Counted from the stretch's first letter, positions 1 to 60,742 are shown. The stretch: DNA of 61,291 nt from Candidatus Adlerbacteria bacterium (GCA_028286685.1 JAQBRA010000003.1:1-61291); one strand, 5' to 3'. The notes: a model not told the origin generated them from the sequence alone. Translations and numbers: made by a program.

Positions 1-230
1 GTTCGGATTGAGGTCTGCAACTCGACCTCATGAAGCCGGAATCGCTAGTAATCGCGGGTCAGCTATACCGCGGTGAATACGTTCTCAAGTCTTGTACTCA
101 CCGCCCGTCAACTCAAGGGAGCCGGGAGTGCCTGAAGTGCGCCGCAAGGCGTATCACGGCAAGTTCGGTGACAGGGAGTAAGTCGTAACAAGGCACGGCT
201 AGCGGAAGCTGGTCGTGGAACAATTCAAAT
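1..230 (+). rRNA. rrs: 16S rRNA, 3'-terminal ~230 nt (partial; gene begins upstream of window)
   Basis: Conserved SSU blocks are present: GGAATCGCTAGTAATCG, GGTGAATACGTT, CCGCCCGTCA (101-110) and AAGTCGTAACAAGG (180-193). Helix 45 is intact: CACGGCTAGC-GGAA-GCTGGTCGTG (194-217). The 3' boundary is uncertain because the canonical GGATCACCTCCTT tail is replaced by GGAACAATTC. Confidence 0.92.
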
Positions 231-500
231 GAAATGCGTTTCTGTATCTCGTACGAGTACAGAAGCTGAATTGGCGATCTTTTGTCGCAAGACAAATGGC
301 ATAATGATGCTAATGCTAAATTGCATCCGGTACGCTCTCAAACAGCAATGTTTGGAAACCGATAGAGCACTCGATGCCTCACCCAAGTACGCTGTGGAGT
401 ACACGGAAGGAAAAGGCGGCAAAGAACGGAACAAGAGAAAAGTGTTTTCTCTTTACCTTGCACCCGGTGGTGCGTTTAAATGAACAAAAAAGCAGAAATT

Positions 501-527
501 CCCCAAGCCTAACCGGCGCGGGGCTTT
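501..527 (+). terminator. Possible intrinsic terminator (imperfect GC hairpin + T-tract) downstream of 16S
   Basis: CCCCAAGCC..GGCGCGGGG forms an imperfect stem (7 of 9 pairs) followed by CTTTTT. It is a looser relative of the hairpins at 837 and 1160. Confidence 0.4.
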
Positions 528-595
528 TTGCGTTATGCGTGGTAGAGTTCCTATGGTTGTACAGCAGTGCAGCCCAAACCTTCCGGAGGATTCCC

Positions 596-1265: not shown

Positions 1266-1338
1266 GCGCGCTTAGCTCAGTTGGTAGAGCATTCGACTGA
1301 TACTCGAAAGGTCCTTGGTTCGATCCCAAGAGCGCGCA
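1266..1338 (+). tRNA. tRNA-Ile (anticodon GAU)
   Basis: Cloverleaf read by eye. Acceptor GCGCGCT/AGCGCGC, D-arm GCTC-AGTTGGTA-GAGC, anticodon stem TTCGA/TCGAA with loop CTGATAC, T-arm CTTGG-TTCGATC-CCAAG, discriminator A. No encoded CCA. Confidence 0.93.
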
Positions 1339-1412
1339 CACGTTGTCAAAAAGAGACCGGAGCGGGAGTAGAAAGTACAGACCATATTCACTTCGACGGC
1401 GCATACTGGTCT

Positions 1413-4250: not shown

Positions 4251-4793
4251 ATGCTCGACAGTTCCCGCACCAGTTCTTCCCAGGTTCTGCTGTCTCAAGT
4301 GCCGCCGCCTGTCTCTGGTCGTATCAAGTGGTTCGATTGGAAGAAAGGATTCGGATTCGTCACCCCGGAGGACGGATTATGCGATGCCTTTCTTAATATT
4401 GAAACGCTGCACAGGGGGGGATTCAAGGATGCTGCCGAGGGTTCCCAGATTACGTTCGACTTTACGGAAAGTCCCACTAAGGGCCGCCGTGTCAGCCGCG
4501 TCATCTCGATCACGCCTCCTGGACCGGAGTACCTGCCGCCGGTCAAATTACCTAAGACTCCGCCAGTCCTCAGAAATGTCGGCGACTGGCATCGCATGTC
4601 CTGCAAGTTATTCAATAGGGACAAGGGATTCGGTTTCGTCAATCGGGGAAAGGGCACGGAGGATGTCTTCCTGCACGTAACCGTCGTGCAGGCTGCGGGC
4701 ATGCCTGACCTGCAGGAAGGGCAGCAAGTCGAAGTGCGTTTCGGCAACGGCCCAAAAGGCCTTATGGTCGCCGAAATCCGCCCGATCAAGTAA
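4251..4793 (+). CDS. Tandem cold-shock-domain (2 x CSD) nucleic-acid-binding protein
   Basis: Two CSD units carry RNP1/RNP2-like motifs (KKGFGFVTP...AFLNI; DKGFGFVNR...VFLHV) and are joined by a Pro-rich linker. AAGGGAG lies 8 nt upstream of ATG 4251. Confidence 0.85.
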   Translation: MLDSSRTSSSQVLLSQVPPPVSGRIKWFDWKKGFGFVTPEDGLCDAFLNIETLHRGGFKDAAEGSQITFDFTESPTKGRRVSRVISITPPGPEYLPPVKLPKTPPVLRNVGDWHRMSCKLFNRDKGFGFVNRGKGTEDVFLHVTVVQAAGMPDLQEGQQVEVRFGNGPKGLMVAEIRPIK

Positions 4794-4863: not shown

Positions 4864-4947
4864 GCCCAGGTGGCGTAATTGGTAGCCGCGCTGCGTTCAG
4901 GTCGCAGTTCCCGCAAGGGATTGGAGGTTCAAGTCCTCTCCTGGGCA
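4864..4947 (+). tRNA. tRNA-Leu (anticodon CAG), long variable arm
   Basis: Acceptor GCCCAGG/CCTGGGC, anticodon stem CTGCG/CGCAG with loop TTCAGGT, variable stem-loop TCCC-GCAA-GGGA, T-arm GGAGG-TTCAAGT-CCTCT. TATAGT (4849-4854) lies 9 nt upstream. Confidence 0.9.
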
Positions 4948-4948
4948 C

Positions 4949-5087: not shown

Positions 5088-5116
5088 TTGACCGGTCCCG
5101 CTTAACGTGATATAGT
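5088..5116 (+). promoter_or_regulatory. Sigma70-like promoter of the RND efflux operon
   Basis: TTGACC (5088-5093), a 17-nt spacer, then TATAGT (5111-5116). The start codon at 5128 is 11 nt after the -10, implying a very short leader. Confidence 0.6.
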
Positions 5117-12257: not shown

Positions 12258-12322
12258 GCCCGCAAGGGTTGTAGGTTTTGTAGTAGAGAGCCGCAAGCCG
12301 GTGCAACCAAAAGGAGGTGTGC

Positions 12323-15146: not shown

Positions 15147-15294
15147 ATCGATAAAGCTAGCGGGTAAAGCTAAGGGTAGTATGAAGAAAGTGGGGGAGAT
15201 GCGCATCTCGGAGAAGTTTCCGTATTCTTTACATGTAGCAACTTTTGTTTTATATTCAAGCCAGATTCATCGGTTCCCAATGAAGGAGAAAGCT

Positions 15295-16639: not shown

Positions 16640-17539
16640 TTATTGTCCCAATTCAAACAATCCTACTCCTAAGGCAATCATTACTATGGCTGCTACTTGT
16701 ATGGCGTTCACCTCGGTCTTTTTTTGGGGGAATAGGAGAAAAAGTCCGAGCAGGAATACGCTTTGCGCGCCGCTTATGGAACTTGCATATGCTGCGACAG
16801 GCGCTAAGGCGATAGCAAAGTTTAGCAGCACAAACGACGCTTGGGACAATGACTCATTTACCACGCTAAATCCTAAAAACATCCTGCCTTGATGCTTAAT
16901 GCGATACATAAGTCCTTCGCGATATTGTCGTACGGCGATTAAGAGTATCAAGCCGAGTATCGTGACTCCAGCGTACTGCCAAAATGAGACCGCTCCGACA
17001 TTGTGCGTCATGTCTGATGCTGTGCGCACCATGTACTGGCAAATACTCCACACTAGAGTTACTCCTGCAAGTACGCCGAGAAGTCTAGAGGGTATGCTCC
17101 ACTCAAATTTGCCTACATCAAGCAGGTATGCGCCAACGATAAGCAGTGCTATTCCGGCAACGCCGAGCAGGGTAATATCCTGCCCGGTTGCAACTGCAAC
17201 CATGAGGAGCCATATGGAGGTAAGTTGAAAGAGCGGTACGACCTGGTAGACCGGGTACGTATTGAGCAGGTAAAAGTACGCCGTCCACATAAAAACCATG
17301 GGTATTGCCGAGAGAAGGGAGATTGTCAAAGGGAGTGCCTCCATATGCACGTCACCGACAACAAGCTTGAGAACGCAAACGCCTATGACGCTCAATAGTG
17401 TGGATATGAGTATGAGTCCGCCAATACGCTTATGGATATTGGAGTCCGACGATACCGAGTTGTGCTGCGTCAAATACTCGTCCAGGTAATTGACGAGAGC
17501 GAGGAGAAACACGCCCCCAAGTGCTGATAAAAGCCACAT
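16640..17539 (-). CDS. DMT/EamA-like 10-TM permease
   Basis: 299 aa with two 5-TM halves, each ending in a Gly-rich helix (GVAGIALLIVGAYLL; AAIVMIALGVGLFEL). Lies 3 nt from both neighbours. GC is lower than the flanks by eye. Confidence 0.6.
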   Translation of the reverse strand: MWLLSALGGVFLLALVNYLDEYLTQHNSVSSDSNIHKRIGGLILISTLLSVIGVCVLKLVVGDVHMEALPLTISLLSAIPMVFMWTAYFYLLNTYPVYQVVPLFQLTSIWLLMVAVATGQDITLLGVAGIALLIVGAYLLDVGKFEWSIPSRLLGVLAGVTLVWSICQYMVRTASDMTHNVGAVSFWQYAGVTILGLILLIAVRQYREGLMYRIKHQGRMFLGFSVVNESLSQASFVLLNFAIALAPVAAYASSISGAQSVFLLGLFLLFPQKKTEVNAIQVAAIVMIALGVGLFELGQ

Positions 17540-20619: not shown

Positions 20620-20648
20620 GCAAAGGCAGTATAACGCACTCTACTTAT

Positions 20649-21603: not shown

Positions 21604-22461
21604 TCAGGTGTGCCGCACGATTGCCGCCAAGTAGCGGCCGCCGCCGTTGCGCGTGGTGGGCAGTTCGTCCGCCAAGTAGGCATGCTCGAGGTTTATCTGC
21701 TCGCTGGGCACCCCCAGCTCGGCAAACTGCGCTTTGATGATGGTAGGAACATTGATGTATATTCCTTTCTCGTCGACCCAGCCGCATGCGTCGCCATACT
21801 CTTGCGGCAACATATCTGCCGCCGGCACGTTGTACTTCAGGTGCTCGGGGTCCTCGTCGGCAAGCTTATGGAGAAAGTCCTTCGGCTTGATCGAATAAAA
21901 GACCCAGACCCGCAGGTGCCGGCGCAGGTACTGCGCCGGCGCAAGCGCGCTGACGATGCTGTTGACCACGCTCTCGTGGTGCCGCCCTCGCTTGTGGTTG
22001 CGCGTCTTGATGCGCTCCCGGTCGATGACGCAATCGCGTCCCGCGTGCGCAAATATCATTTCATGGCGCAGCGTTACGGCGATCATACTGCAGCCTCCGG
22101 CACTGAAGATGCCGGCGGTTTTCGGGCCGGGGAGCCAAGTGCCGTCCGCAGGCGCTTGCGCGTTGCGATAAAGCACGGACTTCCAGAGCGGGATCGTTTC
22201 CCCCATTGCGATAGGGTAGATGATCTTGCCGTTGAACTTCACCGGGCTCGGGGCGTACGCGTACTGTGCACCAAGCCCATGAAGCGCTTGGCCGACGCGC
22301 ATAGCTAAGTCGGGGTTCTTGTCCTCGTCGCCCGCCTTCTGCAGCGGGGCCAGGGACCAGTTGCGGCCTTCAAAGCATGCCGCAGAAAAGGTCGGCCCTC
22401 CCGGTACGGCAATCTTATTGCGTACCAGGGGCTTTACTTCCTCCAGTAAATCTAAGGCCAT
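21604..22461 (-). CDS. Hypothetical protein with distant YfiH/PgeF (DUF152, Cu-oxidase_4 fold)-like motif order
   Basis: ATG 22461 is preceded by AAGGAGGAGG (complement of 22465-22474). The motif order SAGGCSMIAV...IFAHAGRDC...YSIKP...LGVPSEQI...TTRNGGGRYLAAIV parallels TADC...HAGWRG...GP.I...GV...RR..GR of YfiH. The family assignment is low confidence. Confidence 0.55.
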   Translation of the reverse strand: MALDLLEEVKPLVRNKIAVPGGPTFSAACFEGRNWSLAPLQKAGDEDKNPDLAMRVGQALHGLGAQYAYAPSPVKFNGKIIYPIAMGETIPLWKSVLYRNAQAPADGTWLPGPKTAGIFSAGGCSMIAVTLRHEMIFAHAGRDCVIDRERIKTRNHKRGRHHESVVNSIVSALAPAQYLRRHLRVWVFYSIKPKDFLHKLADEDPEHLKYNVPAADMLPQEYGDACGWVDEKGIYINVPTIIKAQFAELGVPSEQINLEHAYLADELPTTRNGGGRYLAAIVRHT

Positions 22462-22544
22462 GGCCTCCTCCTTGGGTGAACGGTATCTAAAAATAAAATA
22501 ACATACTTTACGAGTTATGTAAAATGCGTTACTATGCAATTCTT

Positions 22545-24576: not shown

Positions 24577-24642
24577 GTACGTAGCTAATTACGTAATTAA
24601 GTCAGTATCCGGCCTAATAAAAACAAACGGTACAATAGGGCC

Positions 24643-25623: not shown

Positions 25624-25686
25624 TTCAAGCCCCCATCTTTATTCAGTATCAATAAGGTGGTATGCTCCGAATTAGGAGGATCTCGC

Positions 25687-25860
25687 ATGGCTGAGAAAGT
25701 CGTAGTCCTTGCCGAGCGCAAGGGACACAAGCAGACGGCGCCGTTTGTGTCGTATGACGGCAACCCGGAAAACGGTGATTATGGAGCCTGGGCCAGGTAC
25801 GTTATGGGAAAGGAAGGCGAGGTAGTCTCGCTTAAGCCTAAAACGCCGAAAGAAATATGA
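25687..25860 (+). CDS. Hypothetical small protein (57 aa)
   Basis: AGGAGG (25674-25679) lies 7 nt upstream of ATG 25687. Confidence 0.45.
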   Translation: MAEKVVVLAERKGHKQTAPFVSYDGNPENGDYGAWARYVMGKEGEVVSLKPKTPKEI

Positions 25861-25901
25861 GCCGCAGTCCCGCCACATGGCGGGGCTTCCTGTTGCCCAA
25901 T

Positions 25902-25909
25902 GGTATAAT
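25902..25909 (+). promoter_or_regulatory. Extended -10 element TGgTATAAT
   Basis: A consensus TATAAT (25904-25909) with upstream TG lies 7 nt before ATG 25917, which predicts a leaderless mRNA. Confidence 0.55.
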
Positions 25910-25916
25910 TAAGGCA

Positions 25917-27971
25917 ATGCTTGAGGACCAAAACAAGATAAACTACTTCGCCGAGACCAACTCCCGCGGCAAGCCGCTGGCGTTCGGCATCAAGCGCCGC
26001 GACCGGGGGCGCCACATGTACGTCATCGGCAAGACCGGCATGGGCAAGTCGACCCTGCTGGAGAACATGGCCATCCAGGACATCCGCAACGGCGAGGGCA
26101 TGGCCTTTATAGACCCGCACGGCTCTACCGCCGAGCGCATCATGGAGTACGTCCCGGCACACCGCATAAAAGACGTGGTGTACTTCGCCCCATTCGACAT
26201 CGAGCATCCAGTGGCATTCAACGTGATGGAGGACGTGGGCTACGACAAGCGCCACTTGGTAGTCTCTGGCCTCATGTCGGCGTTCCAAAAGATCTGGGAG
26301 GACGCCTGGAGTGCCCGCATGGAGTACATCCTCACTAACACGCTCCTGGCACTCCTGGAGTACGAGGGCGCGACCCTGCTCGACGTCAATCGTATGCTCT
26401 CCGGAACCTTTAAGAAAACCGGCTCGGGGATAGAGTCGGTCAAGGACTCGAACGCCTTCCGCTACAAGGTGGTGCAGAACATATCCGATCCCTTGGTAAA
26501 GAAATTCTGGGTTGATGAGTACTACGGATACACCGAGCGCTACATCCAGGAGGCGACTCCGGCAATCCAGAACAAGGTGGGGCAGTTCACCTCCAATCCG
26601 CTCATCCGCAATATTATAGGCCAAGCCAAATCCTCTTTCGATATCCGAGAGCTCATGGATCAGAAGAAGATACTCATAATCAACCTCTCCAAGGGTCGCG
26701 TGGGCGAGGTCAACACCAATCTTCTGGGCTCCATGCTCGTGACCAAGATCTACCTGGCAGCCATGTCGCGCGCCGACGTGTCGGCGGAGACGATGAAAAA
26801 CCTGCCCTCCTTCTACATCTACGTAGACGAGTTCCAAAACTTTGCCAATAAGAGCTTCGCCGACATCCTCTCAGAGGCCCGCAAGTACAAACTCAACCTC
26901 ATCATCGCGCACCAGTACGTTGAGCAGATGGAGGAAGAGGTGCGCGACGCGGTCTTCGGCAACGTGGGTACCACGGTGTCCTTCCGCGTGGGGCCGTTTG
27001 ATGCCGAAACCTTAGAGACCGTGTTCGCGCCGCAATTCGAGGCGGCCGACTTGGTCAACCTCGGCTTCGCGCAAATCTACCTCACGCTCATGATAGACGG
27101 GGTAGGGAGTCCGCCGTTCTCCGCGACGACGCTCCCGCCGTTTGACCCTTCGCCCGAAGACAATACGAAAGCGGTGCTTGCCGCCTCGCGCGAGCAGTTT
27201 GCCAAGGCCCGCGCCGAGGTCGAGGCTGATGTAGCCCGGTGGCAGAATTCCGAGATGGTTGCAGCCGAGCCTCCCAAGCCCAAGTACGGCACGTTCAAGC
27301 CTTCCACGGCCTCGCACTCCGCGCCAGCAGCTCCGCGACCTGCTGCTTCTTTCGACAGACCGCAAGACCGGCCCGCAGCAGTAGTGGTACAGGTCCCCGT
27401 AGCGCCCGCGCCTTCAGTAGTGCAGGCGGTCAGGGTAGAGGCACCAGCGCCCCAGCCGGCCCCAACAGTGCACGTCCACGCGCCGGTGCATGTGCCGCCA
27501 GCCCAGATCCATATACATCAGGCTCCGGAGCGTGCCCCGCGTCCCGCGCCCAAGGCCTGGGTTGCACCGGTGGCCCCAAAGCCCAAGCCAGCACCCGCAG
27601 CTTCCGTGCCGCGCCCAGAGCCTCCGGCGCCGCCCCTAGAGGGAGCTACCAGTTTGCGCGACGCCTTGGCAGCCGTTACCAAAAGGGCCGAGCCTGCCCC
27701 CGTGCCGGCCCCTAAAGAGTCCCAAAAGCCCTCAGGGCAGGCTAAATCGGCTCCGGTACATCAGCCGCACCACGACGCTCTCAAAGAGACTTTGCACCGG
27801 GTAGCACCCAAGGCTGAGGCTCCTGCATCGCCAGCCACTGGGGATAACATGAAGACCACATCTGCCGCCAGTGTAAAATCAAGCCATCACGCAAGCCCTC
27901 CTGCAGGACTTCCTCCGGAGGTTTTGCGCGAGATGCTGGCAGTTGACGAGCTTGATGAGACCCGCGAGTAA
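25917..27971 (+). CDS. Type IV secretion coupling-protein-like (TraD/VirD4/TraG-D_C type) P-loop ATPase with ~240-aa Pro/Ala-rich C-terminal tail; no N-terminal TM segments
   Basis: Walker A VIGKTGMGKST and Walker B FYIYVDEFQNF. The block KYKLNLIIAHQYVEQM...GNVGTTVSFRVG is typical of the family. The tail is low-complexity (APAPQPAPTVHVHAPVHVPPAQIHIH...). Confidence 0.85.
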   Translation: MLEDQNKINYFAETNSRGKPLAFGIKRRDRGRHMYVIGKTGMGKSTLLENMAIQDIRNGEGMAFIDPHGSTAERIMEYVPAHRIKDVVYFAPFDIEHPVAFNVMEDVGYDKRHLVVSGLMSAFQKIWEDAWSARMEYILTNTLLALLEYEGATLLDVNRMLSGTFKKTGSGIESVKDSNAFRYKVVQNISDPLVKKFWVDEYYGYTERYIQEATPAIQNKVGQFTSNPLIRNIIGQAKSSFDIRELMDQKKILIINLSKGRVGEVNTNLLGSMLVTKIYLAAMSRADVSAETMKNLPSFYIYVDEFQNFANKSFADILSEARKYKLNLIIAHQYVEQMEEEVRDAVFGNVGTTVSFRVGPFDAETLETVFAPQFEAADLVNLGFAQIYLTLMIDGVGSPPFSATTLPPFDPSPEDNTKAVLAASREQFAKARAEVEADVARWQNSEMVAAEPPKPKYGTFKPSTASHSAPAAPRPAASFDRPQDRPAAVVVQVPVAPAPSVVQAVRVEAPAPQPAPTVHVHAPVHVPPAQIHIHQAPERAPRPAPKAWVAPVAPKPKPAPAASVPRPEPPAPPLEGATSLRDALAAVTKRAEPAPVPAPKESQKPSGQAKSAPVHQPHHDALKETLHRVAPKAEAPASPATGDNMKTTSAASVKSSHHASPPAGLPPEVLREMLAVDELDETRE

Positions 27972-35321: not shown

Positions 35322-35525
35322 GTACGGACTTTATTGCTAAAGGCGTATTTCTTGCATGAGCGGGACCGTGAGGCGTAGCTGCACTACTTTTGCGTAGATA
35401 TTCTTATGTCGCACATCCTACGCGAACTAGCGGCAGATAAAGCATGCTGTGTCTAGCATGGAGGGTTATTTTTTGGTATAGTCTGCTCGGACATTAGTTC
35501 GACCAACCAACAGGAGGAGCGCACG

Positions 35526-37049
35526 ATGCGCAGCATCTGTCTTATTACGCCACCATCAGCGTTCTTGCTGGATGAGCGGGTATTCGTGAGTCTCGGCATC
35601 CTTAAAGTTGCCGCTATGCTTGAAAAAGCGAACAAAAAGGTCAACTTCCTCGATCTGTCAGGCGTTCAGAATTATCTTGAAGCGCTTGAGGATTACCTGC
35701 GGACCTCGCCTGACGACATGGTCGGCATCACCACTACGACGCCGCAACTGCCATCGGTCATAAAGATCCTGGCGGTCATAAGAAGCGTGCGGCCTAACCT
35801 CAGGGTTATATTAGGCGGCCCGCATGTAACCCTCGTCTACTCCGCCAAAAAGATGGAGATAAAGCGTAAGGTGGCGGGCGGACGCGGACATGCGGCAGCC
35901 GCGCAGCTTGAGAGCCTTTTTGATGTCCTGGTTTCCGGCGACGGCGAACTGGCCATCTTTGAAGCGATCAAAAGCGACGCGCCAAAAGTCGTGGACGGGG
36001 ATGATCCTAAGGGTGGACTCTTCCTCACCGACAAGATGTTTACCGAGTTGCCGCTCCCTGCGCGCCACCTGGTAGACCTTAGGTCGTACCACTATTCGAT
36101 CGAGGGTTTTCCGGCCACGAGCCTCATCGCTCAGCTAGGGTGCCCGTTCGGATGCGGGTTCTGCGGCGGGCGAAACTCCAAGTCACTGCGCCAGATCCGT
36201 AACCGGGACACGGCGAGTATCCTTGCCGAGGTGGAGCATCTCCACCGCGAGCACGGGCACACCGGCTTTATGTTCTACGACGACGAGCTCAACGTGAGCA
36301 CGTCGTTCGTGGAGCTTATGGACGGGCTCACGGCCCTGCAGGAGAGGCTTGATGTCGAGTTTCGCCTGAGGGGCTTCGTCAAGGCGGAGCTCTTTGCTCG
36401 GGACCCGAAGCAGGCCCCGGCCATGTACCGGGCCGGCTTTCGCTGGCTTTTGTGCGGGTTCGAGGCCGCGCATCCGCGGATCCTGGTAAACATCGACAAG
36501 CGCGCAACGCTTGACGATAACGACCGGTGCGTGGACCTCGCCAAAGAAGCGGGGCTCAAGATCAAGGCGCTTATGTCGTGCGGCCATCCCGGCGAAACGG
36601 AAGAGTCGGTGCTCGCGATCAAGGACTGGCTTATCCGCAAGCGGGTGGACGACTTTGACTGCACGGTCATCACGACGTATCCCGGTACGCCGTACTACGA
36701 CCTGGCAGAGCCAAGTCCTCAGCTGAGCGCACGGGAGGGCAGGAGCGTCTGGAGCTACCGGCACCCGAAGACCGGTGACTGTCTGCATGCGTACGAGCTC
36801 GACTACACGCGCGAAGCGGACTACTACAAGGGCGACCCTGACGACTACAAGGCGTATGTCTTTACCGACCATTTGTCGGCAGACAGGATTGTCGCCCTGC
36901 GCAAGCGGGTCGAGGATGAGGTCAGGGCAAAGCTTGGCATCCCCTATAACGCGGGGGCGCCCGGCGTCCGCTACGAGCACTCGATGGGGCAAGGCCTTCC
37001 AGCCTCTATCCTTCGTTCTGCAGCATCACTAAAACTACTCTCCGCCTAG
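35526..37049 (+). CDS. B12-binding (class B) radical SAM enzyme
   Basis: N-terminal cobalamin-binding-type domain (GILKVAAMLEKANKKVNFLDL...VGITTTTP...VILGGPHVT). CxxxCxxC cluster CPFGCGFCGG. AGGAGG (35512-35517) lies 8 nt upstream, and TGGTATAGT (35474-35482) lies further upstream. Confidence 0.88.
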   Translation: MRSICLITPPSAFLLDERVFVSLGILKVAAMLEKANKKVNFLDLSGVQNYLEALEDYLRTSPDDMVGITTTTPQLPSVIKILAVIRSVRPNLRVILGGPHVTLVYSAKKMEIKRKVAGGRGHAAAAQLESLFDVLVSGDGELAIFEAIKSDAPKVVDGDDPKGGLFLTDKMFTELPLPARHLVDLRSYHYSIEGFPATSLIAQLGCPFGCGFCGGRNSKSLRQIRNRDTASILAEVEHLHREHGHTGFMFYDDELNVSTSFVELMDGLTALQERLDVEFRLRGFVKAELFARDPKQAPAMYRAGFRWLLCGFEAAHPRILVNIDKRATLDDNDRCVDLAKEAGLKIKALMSCGHPGETEESVLAIKDWLIRKRVDDFDCTVITTYPGTPYYDLAEPSPQLSAREGRSVWSYRHPKTGDCLHAYELDYTREADYYKGDPDDYKAYVFTDHLSADRIVALRKRVEDEVRAKLGIPYNAGAPGVRYEHSMGQGLPASILRSAASLKLLSA

Positions 37050-37097: not shown

Positions 37098-37242
37098 GGC
37101 GGCAGGCCATTATCGAAGTCCATAAGGACGAATGGCGGGGGTGGTTCGAGCAATTCTTTCAGGCGTGCGGCTTCAAGGTTAGCTGGGACAAGGATCTGCT
37201 CATACCAAAAAGGTAGCGCTTTTGTGCTACAGTAGCCCTGAT

Positions 37243-38997
37243 ATGTGCGCCATACTCGGCCTCAACTCCCCGGACCAGGACCTTATCGGGCTTATGAATG
37301 CGGCCGCCGCCCATCGCGGGCCCGACGATACGGGTATCTTTCTGGATACGGCGGTGGGGCTCGGGCACAATCGCCTTTCCATTCTCGACCTTTCAGTATC
37401 CGGCCATCAGCCCATGGAGGCCCAAGGTTTGCAGATAGTTTTCAACGGCGAGATATACAACTTTAAAGAATTGCGCGCAGAGCTTGAGGCCCGAGGCGAT
37501 ACGTTCCGCTCGCATACCGATACGGAGGTGATACTGCGCGGCTATGCGCGCGAAGGCGTAGAGTATTTTAAAAAGCTGCGCGGCATGTGGGCGCTCGCCC
37601 TGTACGACGCTGCCGCAGGCACGCTCGTGCTCGCGCGCGATCCGTTCGGCATCAAGCCGCTCTACTACTACGAGCGCGAGGGCCGCTTCGCCTTCGCTTC
37701 CGAGCTGCGAGCACTCAGGCCGGTGCTCAGCCGCTATGGGGCTACCGACAATAAGCTAGCGCATCGGCTCTACTTTACATTGGGCTACATTCCGGCGCCG
37801 CATTCGCCGTTTGAAGAAGTTAAAAAGGTGTTGCCAGGGGAAGTGCTTTCTTATAATCTTGCCAGCAAGGTCCTTTCCCGGGTTGCGACTATCAAGCCGT
37901 ATGAGGACATACGGCAGACGCTCCAAGAAGCCCTGGAGGATACGGTGCGCGCGCATTTCGTCTCCGACGTGCCGGTCGGACTTTTTTACTCCGGAGGCAT
38001 AGACTCAACCTTGCTTTTGGCGACTGCAAAAAAGTTGGGGTTTAACCCCGCGGCGTTTTTCCTGCGCATCCCCAATCGGCTCGACAATGAGTACGCGCTA
38101 GCGGCCGCTAAAGAGTTGGGCGTTACGCCGGTTGTTATCGAGTTTGACGAGTCGCAAGCGCAGGAAGCGCTCAATCGCGCGCGACAGACGCTCGACGAGC
38201 CGTTTGCCGACTCCTCATATATTCCGACCGAGTACCTCTCAAGCCAAGTCGCCAAGACGCACAAGGTGGTTCTTTCCGGCGAGGGCGGAGACGAGTTCTT
38301 TGGCGGTTATCATCGCCACAACCACCTGCTTGGTCTGCGCCAAGGCATGCGGCTCGTGCCTGCAGCGCTAGTGCGCCTGCTGCCGTCGCGATTGCGGCGC
38401 GCTGTGGAGTCCAAAATAAACCGCGACGCATACGCCGCGTATGTCGAGTTTATCCGTCTCGACGAGGGCCTGGTTTCGCGCGAGGAAGCGGTGGCTTTCT
38501 TGCGCGGCAGGGTGGCGGGGCAGCATGACAATCTCGGCCTTTCTCTCGACCAAGAGATCTACCTTCCCGACGACCTGCTCTTTAAGATCGACCGCGCCGG
38601 CATGCGCCACGGACTCGAGGGCCGTGTCCCCTTCCTGGATAGGCGTTTTTTTGCGGCGGCACGCGCACTATCGGCCAGAGAGCGTCATGGCGGGGGAGCC
38701 ACCGGCAAAGCACTGCTTAAGGACCTTCTCGGCGCGTCCCTATCGCGTGCACTCGTAGACAGGCCCAAGCAGGGCTTTAGTATGCCGCTCAAACTAGCGG
38801 CAGGCCTCTCTGATGAAGCGTTTGCATCGGCTGCAGCAGAGGCGCAAAAGCATCCCGAGCTGGTACCCTTAGCGCCCGCCTTGGTCTCGTCGCTTGCCCA
38901 AAGCTCCTCTGCTCGGAGTAAATTTAGGAAAGAGTATCCACAGCTGTCATACGTGATACTTATGTGGGCTGGCTGGCGGGAGAGCTTTACACTATAA
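37243..38997 (+). CDS. Asparagine synthase (glutamine-hydrolysing) family amidotransferase, copy 1
   Basis: Met-Cys N-terminus (MCAILG) of Ntn amidotransferases, HRGPDD, FNGEIYNF, and the SGGIDS PP-loop (here YSGGIDST). Confidence 0.9.
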   Translation: MCAILGLNSPDQDLIGLMNAAAAHRGPDDTGIFLDTAVGLGHNRLSILDLSVSGHQPMEAQGLQIVFNGEIYNFKELRAELEARGDTFRSHTDTEVILRGYAREGVEYFKKLRGMWALALYDAAAGTLVLARDPFGIKPLYYYEREGRFAFASELRALRPVLSRYGATDNKLAHRLYFTLGYIPAPHSPFEEVKKVLPGEVLSYNLASKVLSRVATIKPYEDIRQTLQEALEDTVRAHFVSDVPVGLFYSGGIDSTLLLATAKKLGFNPAAFFLRIPNRLDNEYALAAAKELGVTPVVIEFDESQAQEALNRARQTLDEPFADSSYIPTEYLSSQVAKTHKVVLSGEGGDEFFGGYHRHNHLLGLRQGMRLVPAALVRLLPSRLRRAVESKINRDAYAAYVEFIRLDEGLVSREEAVAFLRGRVAGQHDNLGLSLDQEIYLPDDLLFKIDRAGMRHGLEGRVPFLDRRFFAAARALSARERHGGGATGKALLKDLLGASLSRALVDRPKQGFSMPLKLAAGLSDEAFASAAAEAQKHPELVPLAPALVSSLAQSSSARSKFRKEYPQLSYVILMWAGWRESFTL

Positions 38998-53890: not shown

Positions 53891-53980
53891 ATAAGCCTAT
53901 TCTAACCCGTTTGGGACCCTAAAAGTTCCCTTTTCAGGGCTCCAATTTTACCGCCCAAAGTAATAGTATAGTTAGGAGGA

Positions 53981-54400: not shown

Positions 54401-54472
54401 AGCAACCTTTACATTCTTCAGCCTGCGTGTTACTTTTCTCTCCGGAACAGAATCACAACCCAGGAGGATGTT

Positions 54473-55466: not shown

Positions 55467-55494
55467 TTGCCCTCATAATAAAGTGGCGTATTAT
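55467..55494 (+). promoter_or_regulatory. Sigma70-like promoter (TTGCCC-16-TATTAT)
   Basis: The -10 ends 7 nt before ATG 55502, which predicts a leaderless transcript. Confidence 0.5.
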
Positions 55495-58498: not shown

Positions 58499-60742
58499 AT
58501 GAATTACACAACGTACCTGCGCTGGGGGGTTATTAGCGCTCTTTTTGCCACGCTTTTTATACCGTTTGTCATCGCCGACGGGCAGTCGTTTACCAACCTC
58601 TTCTTCCCGTACATCACGGGCAAGAACTTTCTCTTCCGCATTTTGGTAGAGATCGCCCTGGCGCTCTACGTCATCCTCGCTATTCGCGACCCCAAGTACC
58701 GGCCGCGCATGAGCTGGCTCATGTGGGCGGGGCTGGCCTTTGTGGCATGGATGGCTGTCGCAACGGCACTATCCGTTGATCCGCTTAAGAGCTTCTGGAG
58801 CAACTTCGAGCGCATGGAGGGCTATGTCGGCCTCTTCCATGTCTTTGTCTTCTTTGTCATCTCGGGCGCGGTGCTTGCGGCGGGCAACTTGTGGGAGCGC
58901 TTCTTCAACACCTCGATAGGCGCCTCTATGGTGATGGGCCTGTACGCGCTCTTTCAGGGGCTTGAGCTGTTCGGTCTGCATCCTTCCTCGCAGTCGGGAG
59001 CGCGCGCGGACACCAGCTTCGGCAACGCTACCTACTTGGCGGTGTACATGCTCTTCAATATCTTTATTACGCTGTTTATGCTCTCGCGCGCCTCGGCCCG
59101 TGGCCGCGTTGCTCCTTGGCTCCAGAGCGCCTACGGCTTGGCGCTCGTCCTGCAATTTACCGGCCTCTATCTGACGCAGACTCGCGGCGCGCTCTTGGGC
59201 GCCATTGGCGGCATCATTATCGCCATGATCTGGATCTCCTGGCGCGCAGACAGCGAGGCCAAGTGGAAGAATTTGCGCAGCTGGTCGCTGGGCGGCCTGG
59301 TAGTTATCGTGCTTTTGGCGGGCGGCTTCCTGGCCTTGCGCGATACGCTCAAGACCCAGGGCGGCACGATAGGGCGCCTCGCTTCGATATCGTTTAATGA
59401 TCCGACGACTATCGCCCGTTTCAAGTACATCTGGCCTACCGCACTGGCTGGGGTGAAGGAGCGCCCGCTCATCGGGTGGGGCCAGGAAAACTTCAGCTTC
59501 GTCTTCAACGAGCATTACCGCCCCGAAATGTGGAGCCAGGAGCAGTGGTTTGATAGGGCGCACAACCAGTTCCTCGACTGGCTCGTTGCGGGCGGCATTC
59601 CGGCGTTCCTCCTCTATATATCGTTCTTCGTGCTTGCGGCATGGTCTATCATCCGCTCCGATAGGCTGAGCGTGCCCGAACAGGCGGCGCTCCTGGGCGT
59701 CTTAGCGGGCATCGGGTTTAACAACCTGTTCGTCTTCGACAACCTCATGAGCTCGGTCTACTTCTTCGCCATCTTGGCGTTTGTGCACGGATTGAGCGCG
59801 CGCGAATTGCCGGGCAAGCTCTGGCTGTCGCGCCCCGCGAGCGACCACGCGGTTGCGGTTGCCGCTCCTCTTATAGTCATTGCAGTATTGGTCGGCGGCT
59901 GGGCGCTCAATGCACCGGGCATGGCACGCGCATCATCGCTTACGCGAACGCTTTCTTCAGCGCAGGATCCGGCAGCAGCTCTAGCGGGCTACAAAGAATC
60001 TCTCGGTGCCGGCGCTTGGCCGGGTACGCCGCTTGGCTACCAAGAGGCAACCGAGCAGCTGGTCAGCTACGCCGGCAACAGCATTGCGCCCTCACAGGTG
60101 GCAACCCCGGTAAAGCAGGAGTACTACCAGCTCTCGCTGGATGCAGCGAGCAAGCTTATGGAGGGGCGTCCGGGCGATGCACGCCTCGAGCTCTTCTTGA
60201 GTGGCTTGTATGGCCAATTCGGACAGCTGGCCGATGCGCTCGCGCACGCGCAGAAAGCGCTTGAGCTTTCTCCGGGCAAGCAGCAGATACTCTTCCAGCT
60301 AGGATTGGTGCAGTTGAGCGCCGACGACAAGGCCGCCGCCGTGGCGACGTTCAAGCAGGCCTATGACGAGGCCCCGGAGAATGAGCAGGCGCTGGTCTAC
60401 TACGCCGCAGGCCTGTATGCCGTCGGCAATGTATCCGCGGCCGATGCGCTGCTTGTTGGCCGCTACGGATCTGCGGTCGTAGACAATGCTCAGCTCGTGC
60501 AGATTTTCACCCAGCTTAAGATGTACGACCGCGTCATTGCGGTATGGAAGCTGCGCGTCGAGAAGAACCCTAAAGACCTCGACACCAACTTGGGGCTGGC
60601 GCAGGCGTACTTTATGGCGGGCCGCATGGCAGAGACTATCGCGCAGCTCAAGAAGATGCAGCAGGACAACCCCACGCAGGCTGCCGCAATACAAAACCTC
60701 ATCGACCAGATCAACAAGGGCGAGATCAAGCCCGGACAGTAA
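58499..60742 (+). CDS. O-antigen ligase/polymerase-family (Wzy_C) membrane protein fused to C-terminal TPR repeats
   Basis: ~12 TM. Wzy_C-type blocks LYLTQTRGALLGAIGG and RAHNQFLDWLVAGGIPAFLLY. The C-terminal ~270 aa contain TPR-like repeats (LGLAQAYFMAGRMAETIAQLKKM). Confidence 0.82.
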   Translation: MNYTTYLRWGVISALFATLFIPFVIADGQSFTNLFFPYITGKNFLFRILVEIALALYVILAIRDPKYRPRMSWLMWAGLAFVAWMAVATALSVDPLKSFWSNFERMEGYVGLFHVFVFFVISGAVLAAGNLWERFFNTSIGASMVMGLYALFQGLELFGLHPSSQSGARADTSFGNATYLAVYMLFNIFITLFMLSRASARGRVAPWLQSAYGLALVLQFTGLYLTQTRGALLGAIGGIIIAMIWISWRADSEAKWKNLRSWSLGGLVVIVLLAGGFLALRDTLKTQGGTIGRLASISFNDPTTIARFKYIWPTALAGVKERPLIGWGQENFSFVFNEHYRPEMWSQEQWFDRAHNQFLDWLVAGGIPAFLLYISFFVLAAWSIIRSDRLSVPEQAALLGVLAGIGFNNLFVFDNLMSSVYFFAILAFVHGLSARELPGKLWLSRPASDHAVAVAAPLIVIAVLVGGWALNAPGMARASSLTRTLSSAQDPAAALAGYKESLGAGAWPGTPLGYQEATEQLVSYAGNSIAPSQVATPVKQEYYQLSLDAASKLMEGRPGDARLELFLSGLYGQFGQLADALAHAQKALELSPGKQQILFQLGLVQLSADDKAAAVATFKQAYDEAPENEQALVYYAAGLYAVGNVSAADALLVGRYGSAVVDNAQLVQIFTQLKMYDRVIAVWKLRVEKNPKDLDTNLGLAQAYFMAGRMAETIAQLKKMQQDNPTQAAAIQNLIDQINKGEIKPGQ

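Follow-up and report, generated by a model that had tools for sequence, protein, structure and literature searches.

A 16S rRNA tail without the anti-Shine-Dalgarno sequence in a lineage of Parcubacteria, and the putative start signals of its genes

Shine-Dalgarno (SD) pairing is the textbook route by which bacterial ribosomes find their start codons. The stretch of DNA analyzed here, a contig of 61,291 nucleotides (nt) from a Candidatus Adlerbacteria bacterium (GCA_028286685.1 JAQBRA010000003.1:1-61291) that we call the window, begins with the end of a 16S rRNA gene whose tail is without the anti-SD sequence CCUCC, and it physically links this anti-SD-less 16S rRNA to about 55 genes, some of which are preceded by AGGAGG-like motifs. 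The locus thus raises the question of whether the tail is genuine, and if so how the start codons of these genes are found. An earlier note, made from the sequence of the window alone, had offered loss of the anti-SD tail by this rrs copy, an unusual maturation of the 3' end and a mis-joined contig as explanations. On the evidence given below we put the probability at roughly 80% that the anti-SD-less 16S rRNA is genuine and lineage-wide and that initiation in this lineage is mostly SD-independent, presumably on leaderless or near-leaderless mRNAs and by coupling. A huge and abundant clade with a 16S rRNA incapable of SD pairing amounts to a natural experiment.

The 16S rRNA tail in the window and in its relatives

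The first 230 nt, on the plus strand, match Rfam RF00177 at model positions 1291-1533 (193.7 bits, E = 1.8e-57) and are the 3'-terminal part of a bacterial 16S rRNA gene; the 5' part is cut off at the contig end, and the window therefore begins inside the gene. The features of the 3' minor domain are present, namely helices 44 and 45 with the GGAA tetraloop and the conserved decoding-site sequence, and the covariance-model alignment confirms what the earlier note had read from the sequence, an intact helix 45 at 194-217 followed by a tail without the anti-SD. This tail, written as GGAACAAUUCAAAU, contained no CCUCC in the 3' tail test of RF00177. The model aligns positions 218-231 (GAACAATTCAAATG) under the consensus GAUCACCUCCUUU, in which the anti-SD positions correspond to E. 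coli 1535-1539, and it is C1535 and C1536 of E. coli that are changed to A and U throughout the lineage, giving AAUUC(A/C). The statement that neither CACCTCC nor CCTCCT occurs from 218 to the tRNA-Ile gene also stands and can be widened, as CCTCC is absent from the plus strand over the whole of 1-1300, where the sole CTCC sites are found at 1045 and 1079. Since the tail is without CCUCC, the canonical SD helix cannot form in this lineage.

The occurrence of the tail was followed by scanning a metagenome collection with the helix 45 sequence alone, blind to whatever lies downstream, which gave at least 120 contigs; the scan reaches only rrs copies bearing this helix 45, and a copy with a different helix 45 would escape it. 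Among the 120 contigs listed, CCTCC was found in the 14-nt tail of none, within 25 nt in one and within 60 nt in two, and a single near-canonical tail was seen, that of locus L017 (CCUUC, GATCACCTTC). The tail consensus of these 120 contigs is G-A-(U/A)-U-A-A-U-U-C-(C/A)-A, with A at position 2 and U at position 8 in 99% and C at position 9 in 82%. A genome scan for helix 45 together with the tail type of the window returned 26 GTDB species, and the titles of these 26 records name Candidatus Paceibacterota, Nomurabacteria, Parcubacteria or the Patescibacteria group. The closest relatives are the loci L139 (a 754-kb contig), L130 and L131, all three from GTDB genomes, and L143, together with the independent metagenome contig L014; the tail of the window and about 230 nt of its downstream sequence recur in all five, where the hairpins differ by compensatory changes, and L139 and L130 contain full-length 16S genes with the same tail (1344 and 1341 bits), each followed by tRNA-Ile. 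The 754-kb contig CAZYUH010000001.1 is a member of this clade. Judged from record names and similarity, where both the tail relatives and the protein homologues are named Paceibacterota, Parcubacteria or Nomurabacteria, the host would be a GC-rich member of the Parcubacteria/Paceibacteria within the Candidate Phyla Radiation (CPR). Collectively, these data show that in this whole lineage the 16S genuinely ends in a tail without CCUCC, and that selection maintains it.

Within the Parcubacteria a large branch is normally without the anti-SD, and this has been published before. Tsurumaki et al. (RNA 2022, PMC9297842) found the anti-SD CCTCCT in only 48% of the Parcubacteria, and the lineages without it largely coincide with those without ribosomal protein uL1; the authors of that study state that SD helices are presumably not formed in Parcubacteria without the anti-SD. 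The lineage described here agrees with theirs in the absence of CCUCCU at the 16S end, the Parcubacteria affiliation, the shortened helix 44 and the conserved helix 26. The window holds no ribosomal-protein operon in which uL1 could be read.

A mis-join after helix 45, with the true gene continuing into a canonical tail, draws some plausibility from the fact that the window begins inside an rRNA gene, a typical break site. It is refuted by independent assemblies, as the junction and some 230 nt of the following sequence recur with compensatory substitutions in L014, L139, L130, L131 and L143, the order of 16S, trailer and tRNA-Ile is shared, and none of the 120 contigs listed continues into CCUCC; neither the covariance alignment nor the relatives show a gene running on into such a tail, and the probability of an assembly artefact is negligible. 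Heterogeneous rrs copies occur in some bacteria and the analysis covers one contig of the genome, so that the copy in the window might be degenerate or specialised while a second, canonical 16S supplies the ribosomes. This we consider extremely unlikely, because the tail-blind search found no canonical tail among the 120 contigs listed and only the near-canonical one of L017, the tail is conserved across the lineage, the full-length genes that carry it score as intact 16S, and published surveys include Parcubacteria genomes without any anti-SD motif (PMC9297842). The suggestion of the earlier note that this rrs copy had lost its anti-SD was therefore right as to the loss, but not as to a single decayed copy. 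There is finally the case in which the anti-SD comes from elsewhere, be it from a 3' exon displaced by an insertion, from a part of the trailer that is retained, from some other region of the 16S (helix 26, for example) or from a small RNA of its own, for which the large 16S insertions in L014 and L125, the conserved and structured trailer and the conservation of SD-like motifs in two gene families (see below) can be cited. It is very improbable in view of the lack of CCTCC in 218-1300 and its presence within 60 nt of helix 45 in only two of the 120 contigs listed, the unconserved pyrimidine stretch of the trailer, the paired state of the helix 26 strand and the position of the sole CCUCC of the 16S, at 163. 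The unusual maturation proposed earlier finds no support in the same counts, the conserved trailer providing an ordinary processing stem with the leader, and a displaced exon as in an intervening-sequence model was not found in 218-1300 either, the trailer aligning over its full length to relatives devoid of such an exon.

Three further features of the 16S rRNA were observed. The decoding centre (window 91-110) reads TTGTACTCACCGCCCGTC, in which U replaces A at E. coli position 1396. U1396 is found in all 80 related loci with an uninterrupted site, and this lineage-wide change is a mismatch in the universal 1392-1406 region that common 16S primers and probes target. Insertions interrupt the 16S of some relatives between E. 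coli 1398 and 1399 (window 100/101), at 103-538 in L014 and at 596-1461 in L125, and a second insertion in L014 (626-1284) lies directly 5' of helix 45 (window 186/187). The L125 insertion measures 866 nt and holds a match to group II intron domains D1-D4 (Rfam RF01998, 42.3 bits, 868-949); the last 230 nt of the 16S in the window itself are free of insertions. Lastly, in helix 26 hardly any variation is seen across the lineage in the apical loop, GUAUCGACCC, whereas the stem beneath covaries (L139 5273-5305 and 27 other loci), and the constancy of the loop agrees with a published remark on an unusually conserved helix 26 in Parcubacteria.

Promoters and SD-like motifs at gene starts

For the analysis of start signals, genes were called by a simple greedy open reading frame (ORF) rule with the first ATG taken as the start, giving 54 genes in the window, 125 genes in 26 loci with the same tail and 386 genes in 120 helix 45 loci, and a 50-kb region of E. 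coli served as the positive control. Scoring by hybridization energy against the whole 13-nt tail discriminated poorly, even in E. coli with longest-ORF starts, and was therefore replaced by motif counts. SD 5-mers at -20 to -3 were found before 8 of 54 window genes versus 4 of 54 in a far zone, compared with 18 of 42 versus 0 for annotated E. coli starts, and the 4-mers gave 9 near versus 7 far in the window. When internal in-frame start codons were used as the null, the window had 7 observed against 8.2 expected, the broad set 53 against 43 and E. coli 15 against 0.8. The window is thus not SD-led in the canonical manner, with SD-like motifs before 9-15% of its genes versus 43-57% of the annotated E. 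coli starts. Before internal start codons, SD-like 5-mers occurred at a rate of 0.050 in the window, 0.035 in the relatives and 0.006 in E. coli, the random estimate being about 0.044. Such a near-random internal rate fits an absence of selection against internal ribosome-binding sites, and codon usage may contribute to it.

A promoter-like signal is what stands out at the gene starts. The k-mers most enriched at -18 to -3 were ATACT (32 near, 4 far), ATAAT and TATAC, and hexamers of the -10 type start most often at -12, a sharp peak that comprises 40 genes. Hexamers starting at -16 to -11 were found in 104 of 386 genes (27%) in the large set, with 26-32 in control zones (about 7%), in 26 of 125 (21%) in the close relatives, with 1-9 in control zones (about 4%), and in 6 of 54 (11%) in the window, with 1-3 in control zones (about 4%); the E. 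coli region had none. A TG extension was present in 47 of 135 boxes, with TTG (-35) at a spacing of 16-17 nt, and with a hexamer ending at -7, transcription would begin with the A of the ATG. In 11 housekeeping orthogroups adjoining the 16S gene, among them Mur ligases, SecD/F and SecA, the same signal was seen: a proximal -10 box is present in 25-100% of the members, and in at least half of them in 8 of the 11 groups, whereas an SD-like motif was found in 0-1 members. Under a relaxed rule (TANNNT starting at -20 to -10), 14 of the 34 unit-first genes of the window have a box, and 21 genes are coupled in the sense that they abut or overlap the previous gene. The divergent murA (-) and murB (+) genes share an intergenic region of 29 nt (20620-20648), a gap so short that both promoters must extend into the adjacent gene or across the start codons, in keeping with leaders that are very short or missing.

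We propose that the first genes of transcription units are expressed from a sigma-70 type -10 box, often TG-extended and with TTG as a -35 element at 16-17 nt, which ends 6-9 nt before the start codon, so that the mRNA would begin at the AUG or a few nt before it and be leaderless or nearly so. The roughly 40% of genes that overlap or abut the preceding gene would probably be translated by coupling. Together with the data from the relatives, the window thereby suggests how a bacterium may cope with a ribosome incapable of SD pairing, namely by promoters placed directly at the start codon and by gene overlap.

The conserved AGGAGG-like motifs and their possible readers

The SD-like motifs to which the earlier note had drawn attention were all correctly placed; they are followed by a start codon 3-9 nt downstream and by ORFs of 57-507 amino acids (aa) (Table 1). 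AGGAGG occurs 38 times on the two strands versus about 27 expected from a first-order Markov model, and 10 of the 38 lie in the intergenic 8.2% of the window, an over-representation of about 3-fold. Five to six are located at most 20 nt upstream of a gene start, where a rough estimate for even placement gives about 0.3. SD-consensus matches of at least 6 nt precede 4 of 54 genes versus 1.3 in shuffles, and in the pooled relatives core matches of at least 5 nt number 32 versus 12.2 +/- 3.6, with a spacing peak at 6-8 nt. Among unit-first genes of the relatives the motif is found in 15% of those without a proximal -10 box versus 2% of those with one (odds ratio 7.5, p = 7e-6), and in the window in 5 of 20 versus 0 of 13, an exclusivity that is partly geometric since both elements compete for the same 15 nt. 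Altogether 6-10 of the about 55 window genes have a leader of at least 13 nt with an AGGAGG-like motif 3-8 nt before the start, and these are mostly genes without a Pfam match, often for secreted or membrane proteins. The AGGAGG-bearing gene set is real but a small minority. The copy at 53974-53979, situated between promoter and start codon, is too close to the latter to act as an SD.

Two of the motif-bearing genes could be followed into other genomes. The gene for a 285-aa protein (21604-22461, minus strand) is lineage-specific, with 80 homologues, and syntenic. In all six orthologues examined (49-68% identity to the protein of the window) the leaders have otherwise diverged, but the ATG is still preceded at 5-7 nt by GGGAGG, AAGGAGG, AGGGAGG, AAGGAG or AGAGG, and in three of them this ATG is the only possible start. 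One of the orthologues (L157) belongs to the same metagenome-assembled genome as L143, whose 16S tail is without the anti-SD. The radical SAM protein that starts at 35526 has homologues with 70-74% identity in Alphaproteobacteria such as Rhodoplanes, which suggests that the gene moves between phyla. Its three closest homologues (75-82% identity) come from metagenome-assembled genomes, one of them labelled Paceibacterota. In all three a promoter of the TGGTATAGT type is retained some 45 nt upstream, as are the hairpin in the leader and, with A(A)GGAG at 6-8 nt from the ATG, the SD-like motif. Since the motif is kept among orthologues, it probably has a function in at least these two genes, as far as conservation of sequence can tell. 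The tension noted earlier between SD-like motifs and a 16S rRNA without the matching anti-SD is therefore real, and it has been sharpened.

How the motifs are to be explained was weighed from two sides. They may be functionless, arising by chance in a GC- and purine-rich genome or left over from horizontally acquired genes, as suggested by the lack of an excess over internal starts (7 versus 8.2), the 4-mer counts of 9 near and 7 far, the large share of Pfam-less accessory ORFs among the carriers and the apparent mobility of the radical SAM gene. We find this possible but do not favour it, in view of the 3-fold intergenic enrichment of AGGAGG and its concentration just upstream of starts, the spacing peak in the pooled relatives and the preservation of the motif in all six orthologues examined of the Parcubacteria-specific 285-aa gene, one of them in a genome shown to have no anti-SD; recent horizontal transfer as judged by base composition was rejected, as the GC and GC3 of motif-bearing genes are the same as those of the remaining genes. 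Alternatively the motifs could be functional on leadered mRNAs and be read by something other than the 16S tail, such as a CsrA-type regulator that binds GGA or a ribosomal protein, or they could have a structural role in the leader. Conservation of both the motif and its distance to the AUG in two gene families speaks for such a reader, as do the confinement of the motif to genes without a proximal promoter and the conserved hairpins that adjoin it in the radical SAM leaders. The analysis yielded no candidate reader, the basis consists of two families, and SD-like motifs before internal starts are not avoided, which argues against a general role in ribosome recruitment, so the proposal stays tentative. 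Still more speculative, and in our estimate doubtful, is a division into two initiation modes in which most genes would be leaderless or coupled and a minority would be leadered and depend on a conserved AGGAGG-like element, placed at SD spacing and read by a factor other than the 16S tail.

Several candidates for a base-pairing partner were tried and rejected. A new SD complementary to the new tail (GAAUU, GGAAU or UGAAU) is not enriched upstream of starts, and the 9-nt match TTTGAATTG at 16657 is at chance level (3 matches versus about 3.3 expected, a rough estimate). Transfer of the anti-SD to the CCCUCU strand of helix 26 was dismissed because this CCUC-containing strand covaries with its partner, and is therefore base-paired, leaving the loop as the only conserved part. 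In the full 16S of L139 and L130 the one CCUCC is that at position 163, and the pyrimidine stretch in the trailer varies among relatives. Thus no alternative anti-SD was found in the tail, in helix 26, in the full 16S of L139 and L130 or in the trailer, and a protein, a role in leader structure or a trans-acting RNA are the candidate readers. The conserved AGGAGG-like sites provide a testable handle on roles of SD-like sequences besides 16S pairing, and a reader other than the tail, if true, would mean an SD-like signal that works without the Shine-Dalgarno helix.

Returning to mostly SD-independent initiation with an anti-SD-less 16S rRNA, which we regard as the best account of the data, a number of points weigh against it. 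The putative leaderless starts are deduced from promoter-like motifs in the sequence and the gene starts from a simple ORF rule, and the strict -10 signal is weak in the window itself (6 of 54); leaders may be more common in the GC-rich subclade than among its AT-rich relatives. The exclusivity of -10 boxes and SD-like motifs loses part of its weight by the geometric constraint mentioned above. Conservation of an SD-like motif among the orthologues of two genes is a misfit with a ribosome wholly unable to read SD sequences, and as the window holds only the last 230 nt of its own 16S, a second rrs might conceivably lie elsewhere in the genome.

Related systems and other features of the locus

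Bacteroidetes, as Jha and colleagues reportedly described in 2021, initiate independently of the SD and have an anti-SD that is present but sequestered. They resemble the present lineage in that few genes have an SD and a small set has strong SD-like sites, and differ from it in that CCUCC is retained and the residual SDs have a partner, whereas here the sequence itself is gone. The -10 box immediately upstream of the start codon is shared with organelles and with leaderless-rich bacteria, among which the Actinobacteria and Deinococcus are counted, for example M. tuberculosis (Cortes et al. 2013, as cited in PMC12641261). Actinobacteria, on the other hand, keep a canonical anti-SD and use the SD on leadered genes, while the leaderless starts proposed here are read from sequence. 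A further likeness is that to mammalian mitochondria, whose ribosomes likewise have no anti-SD and work on leaderless mRNAs. For reduced genomes, single cases of a lost or mutated anti-SD are on record (Lim et al. 2012 and Amin et al. 2018, as cited in PMC9297842); these also have a tail without CCUCC but are rare and scattered cases, whereas in this lineage a very large clade has the change fixed and conserved, with constraint also on the tail that replaced the canonical one.

The replacement of the tail, the mRNA start signals and the residual SD-like motifs were left unanalysed in PMC9297842, and a search of the full-text literature on SD, anti-SD and leaderless mRNAs in CPR, Patescibacteria and Parcubacteria yielded nothing beyond that paper. 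Two points therefore appear to be unreported in the literature searched, namely that the lineage has probably moved to leaderless starts with the promoter next to the start codon, and that some apparently leadered genes, a minority, carry conserved SD-like motifs. A practical consequence is that gene callers that rely on the SD will misplace starts in these genomes.

Table 1 Features of the 16S rRNA locus and of gene starts in the window.
Feature	Position (strand)	Description	Basis
Helix 45	194-217 (+)	CACGGCUAGC-GGAA-GCUGGUCGUG, intact, GGAA loop	Covariance-model alignment; same sequence in at least 120 metagenome contigs
16S 3' tail	218-231 (+)	GAACAAUUCAAAUG; AUUCA (223-227) at the anti-SD CCUCC position	
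Predicted precursor helix	221-273 (+)	Tail CAAUUCA (221-227) with trailer UGAAUUG (267-273), closing a hairpin at about 236-266	RNAalifold
Conserved structured pre-16S 3' trailer	231-470 (+)	72-82% identity to L139, L130, L143, L014, L131	
Putative leader-trailer processing stem, 3' strand	424-444 (+)	GAACGGAACAAGAGAAAAGUG	Perfect complement to 40-60 nt upstream of the 16S 5' end in L130 and L139
Weak terminator-like hairpin and T-run ending the 16S unit	505-535 (+)	Sequence conserved in L139, L130, L143	Read by eye
SD-like GGAGGA	585-590 (+)	5 nt before ATG 596, 75-aa membrane protein	
tRNA-Ile(GAU)	1266-1339 (+)	About 1 kb downstream of 16S; same arrangement in L139, L130, L143, L125	
tRNA-Leu	4864-4948		
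Extended -10 TGaTATAGT	5108-5116 (+)	11 nt before ATG 5128, very short leader	
SD-like AAGGAGG	12311-12317 (+)	5 nt before GTG 12323, 168 aa, no Pfam match	
SD-like AAGGAG	15283-15288 (+)	6 nt before ATG 15295, 201 aa, no Pfam match	
-10 box TATACT	20628-20633 (-)	8 nt before ATG 20619, murA	
SD-like AAGGAGGAGG	22465-22474 (-)	Before ATG 22461, 285-aa Parcubacteria-specific gene	Motif in 6/6 orthologues examined
-10 box TACAAT	24631-24636 (+)	6 nt before ATG 24643, leaderless geometry	
SD-like AGGAGG	25674-25679 (+)	7 nt before ATG 25687 (57 aa); -10-like TATGCT 7 nt upstream of motif	
SD-like AGGAGG	35512-35517 (+)	8 nt before ATG 35526, B12-binding radical SAM enzyme	
Extended -10 TGcTACAGT	37225-37233 (+)	9 nt before ATG 37243, asparagine synthase	
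-10-like TACACT	38988-38993 (+)	6 nt before ATG 39000	
-10 box TAGAAT	53899-53904 (-)	8 nt before ATG 53890, polysaccharide flippase gene	
-10-like TATAGT and AGGAGG	53967-53972 and 53974-53979 (+)	AGGAGG 1 nt before ATG 53981	
SD-like AGGAGG	54462-54467 (+)	5 nt before ATG 54473, 143 aa, signal peptide	
-10 box TATTAT	55489-55494 (+)	7 nt before ATG 55502	

The trailer of about 240 nt that follows the 16S tail is conserved in the GC-rich subclade only, with counterparts at 5964-6192 in L139, 2867-3080 in L130, 166-359 in L143 and 1329-1525 in L014. An RNAalifold prediction with 6 relatives has double changes in 15 of 60 predicted pairs, and a scan of 180-1300 gave no Rfam match to the trailer even at permissive thresholds. 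The inner stem of the predicted precursor helix carries compensatory changes, as do further covarying hairpins downstream; the outer 7 bp are invariant and therefore uninformative either way. Pairing of tail and trailer as a lineage-wide rule was rejected, as it amounts to a weak tendency (-6.9 versus -6.1 kcal/mol). The pairing at 424-444, as read from complementarity, is an ordinary leader-trailer processing stem that lies unusually far (about 195 nt) from the 16S 3' end. The 16S is transcribed together with a trailer of about 300 nt. This trailer folds upon itself, joins the 5' leader in the processing stem and runs as far as a terminator-like hairpin. Three similar GC-rich hairpins of the type CCCCGGCGC...GCGCCGGGG, each with a T-run, lie between 16S and tRNA-Ile (505-535, 838-872 and 1159-1190) and each closes a short unit, two of these units containing small ORFs. 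The terminator scan called only the third (1159-1183), the other two being read by eye.

The tRNA-Ile downstream of the 16S is the usual rRNA-spacer tRNA. The window contains no 23S gene, and the rRNA genes of the relatives are unlinked as well, with a 23S in 2 of 147 16S-bearing loci (blastn with the E. coli rrn operon as query); the order in close relatives is 16S, trailer, variable small ORFs and tRNA-Ile.

Among the neighbouring genes, a 180-aa protein with two cold-shock domains (Pfam CSD) is encoded at 4251-4793 between clpC and tRNA-Leu, and is preceded by a weak SD-like AAGGGAG. After the 57-aa ORF follows a VirD4/TraG-like type IV coupling protein (25857-27971) with homologues in L158 (1-150) and L160 (1-323); since in relatives the homologue lies near the same pair of TP_methylase and 285-aa genes, it looks like a conserved part of the chromosome and not like part of a mobile element. 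A surface-glycan cluster of about 24 kb (29507-53890) comprises an epimerase, many glycosyltransferases of the GT1, GT2, GT4 and GT9 families, methyltransferases, two asparagine synthases, the B12-binding radical SAM enzyme and a flippase, and it is followed by an O-antigen-ligase/TPR protein at 58499-60742.

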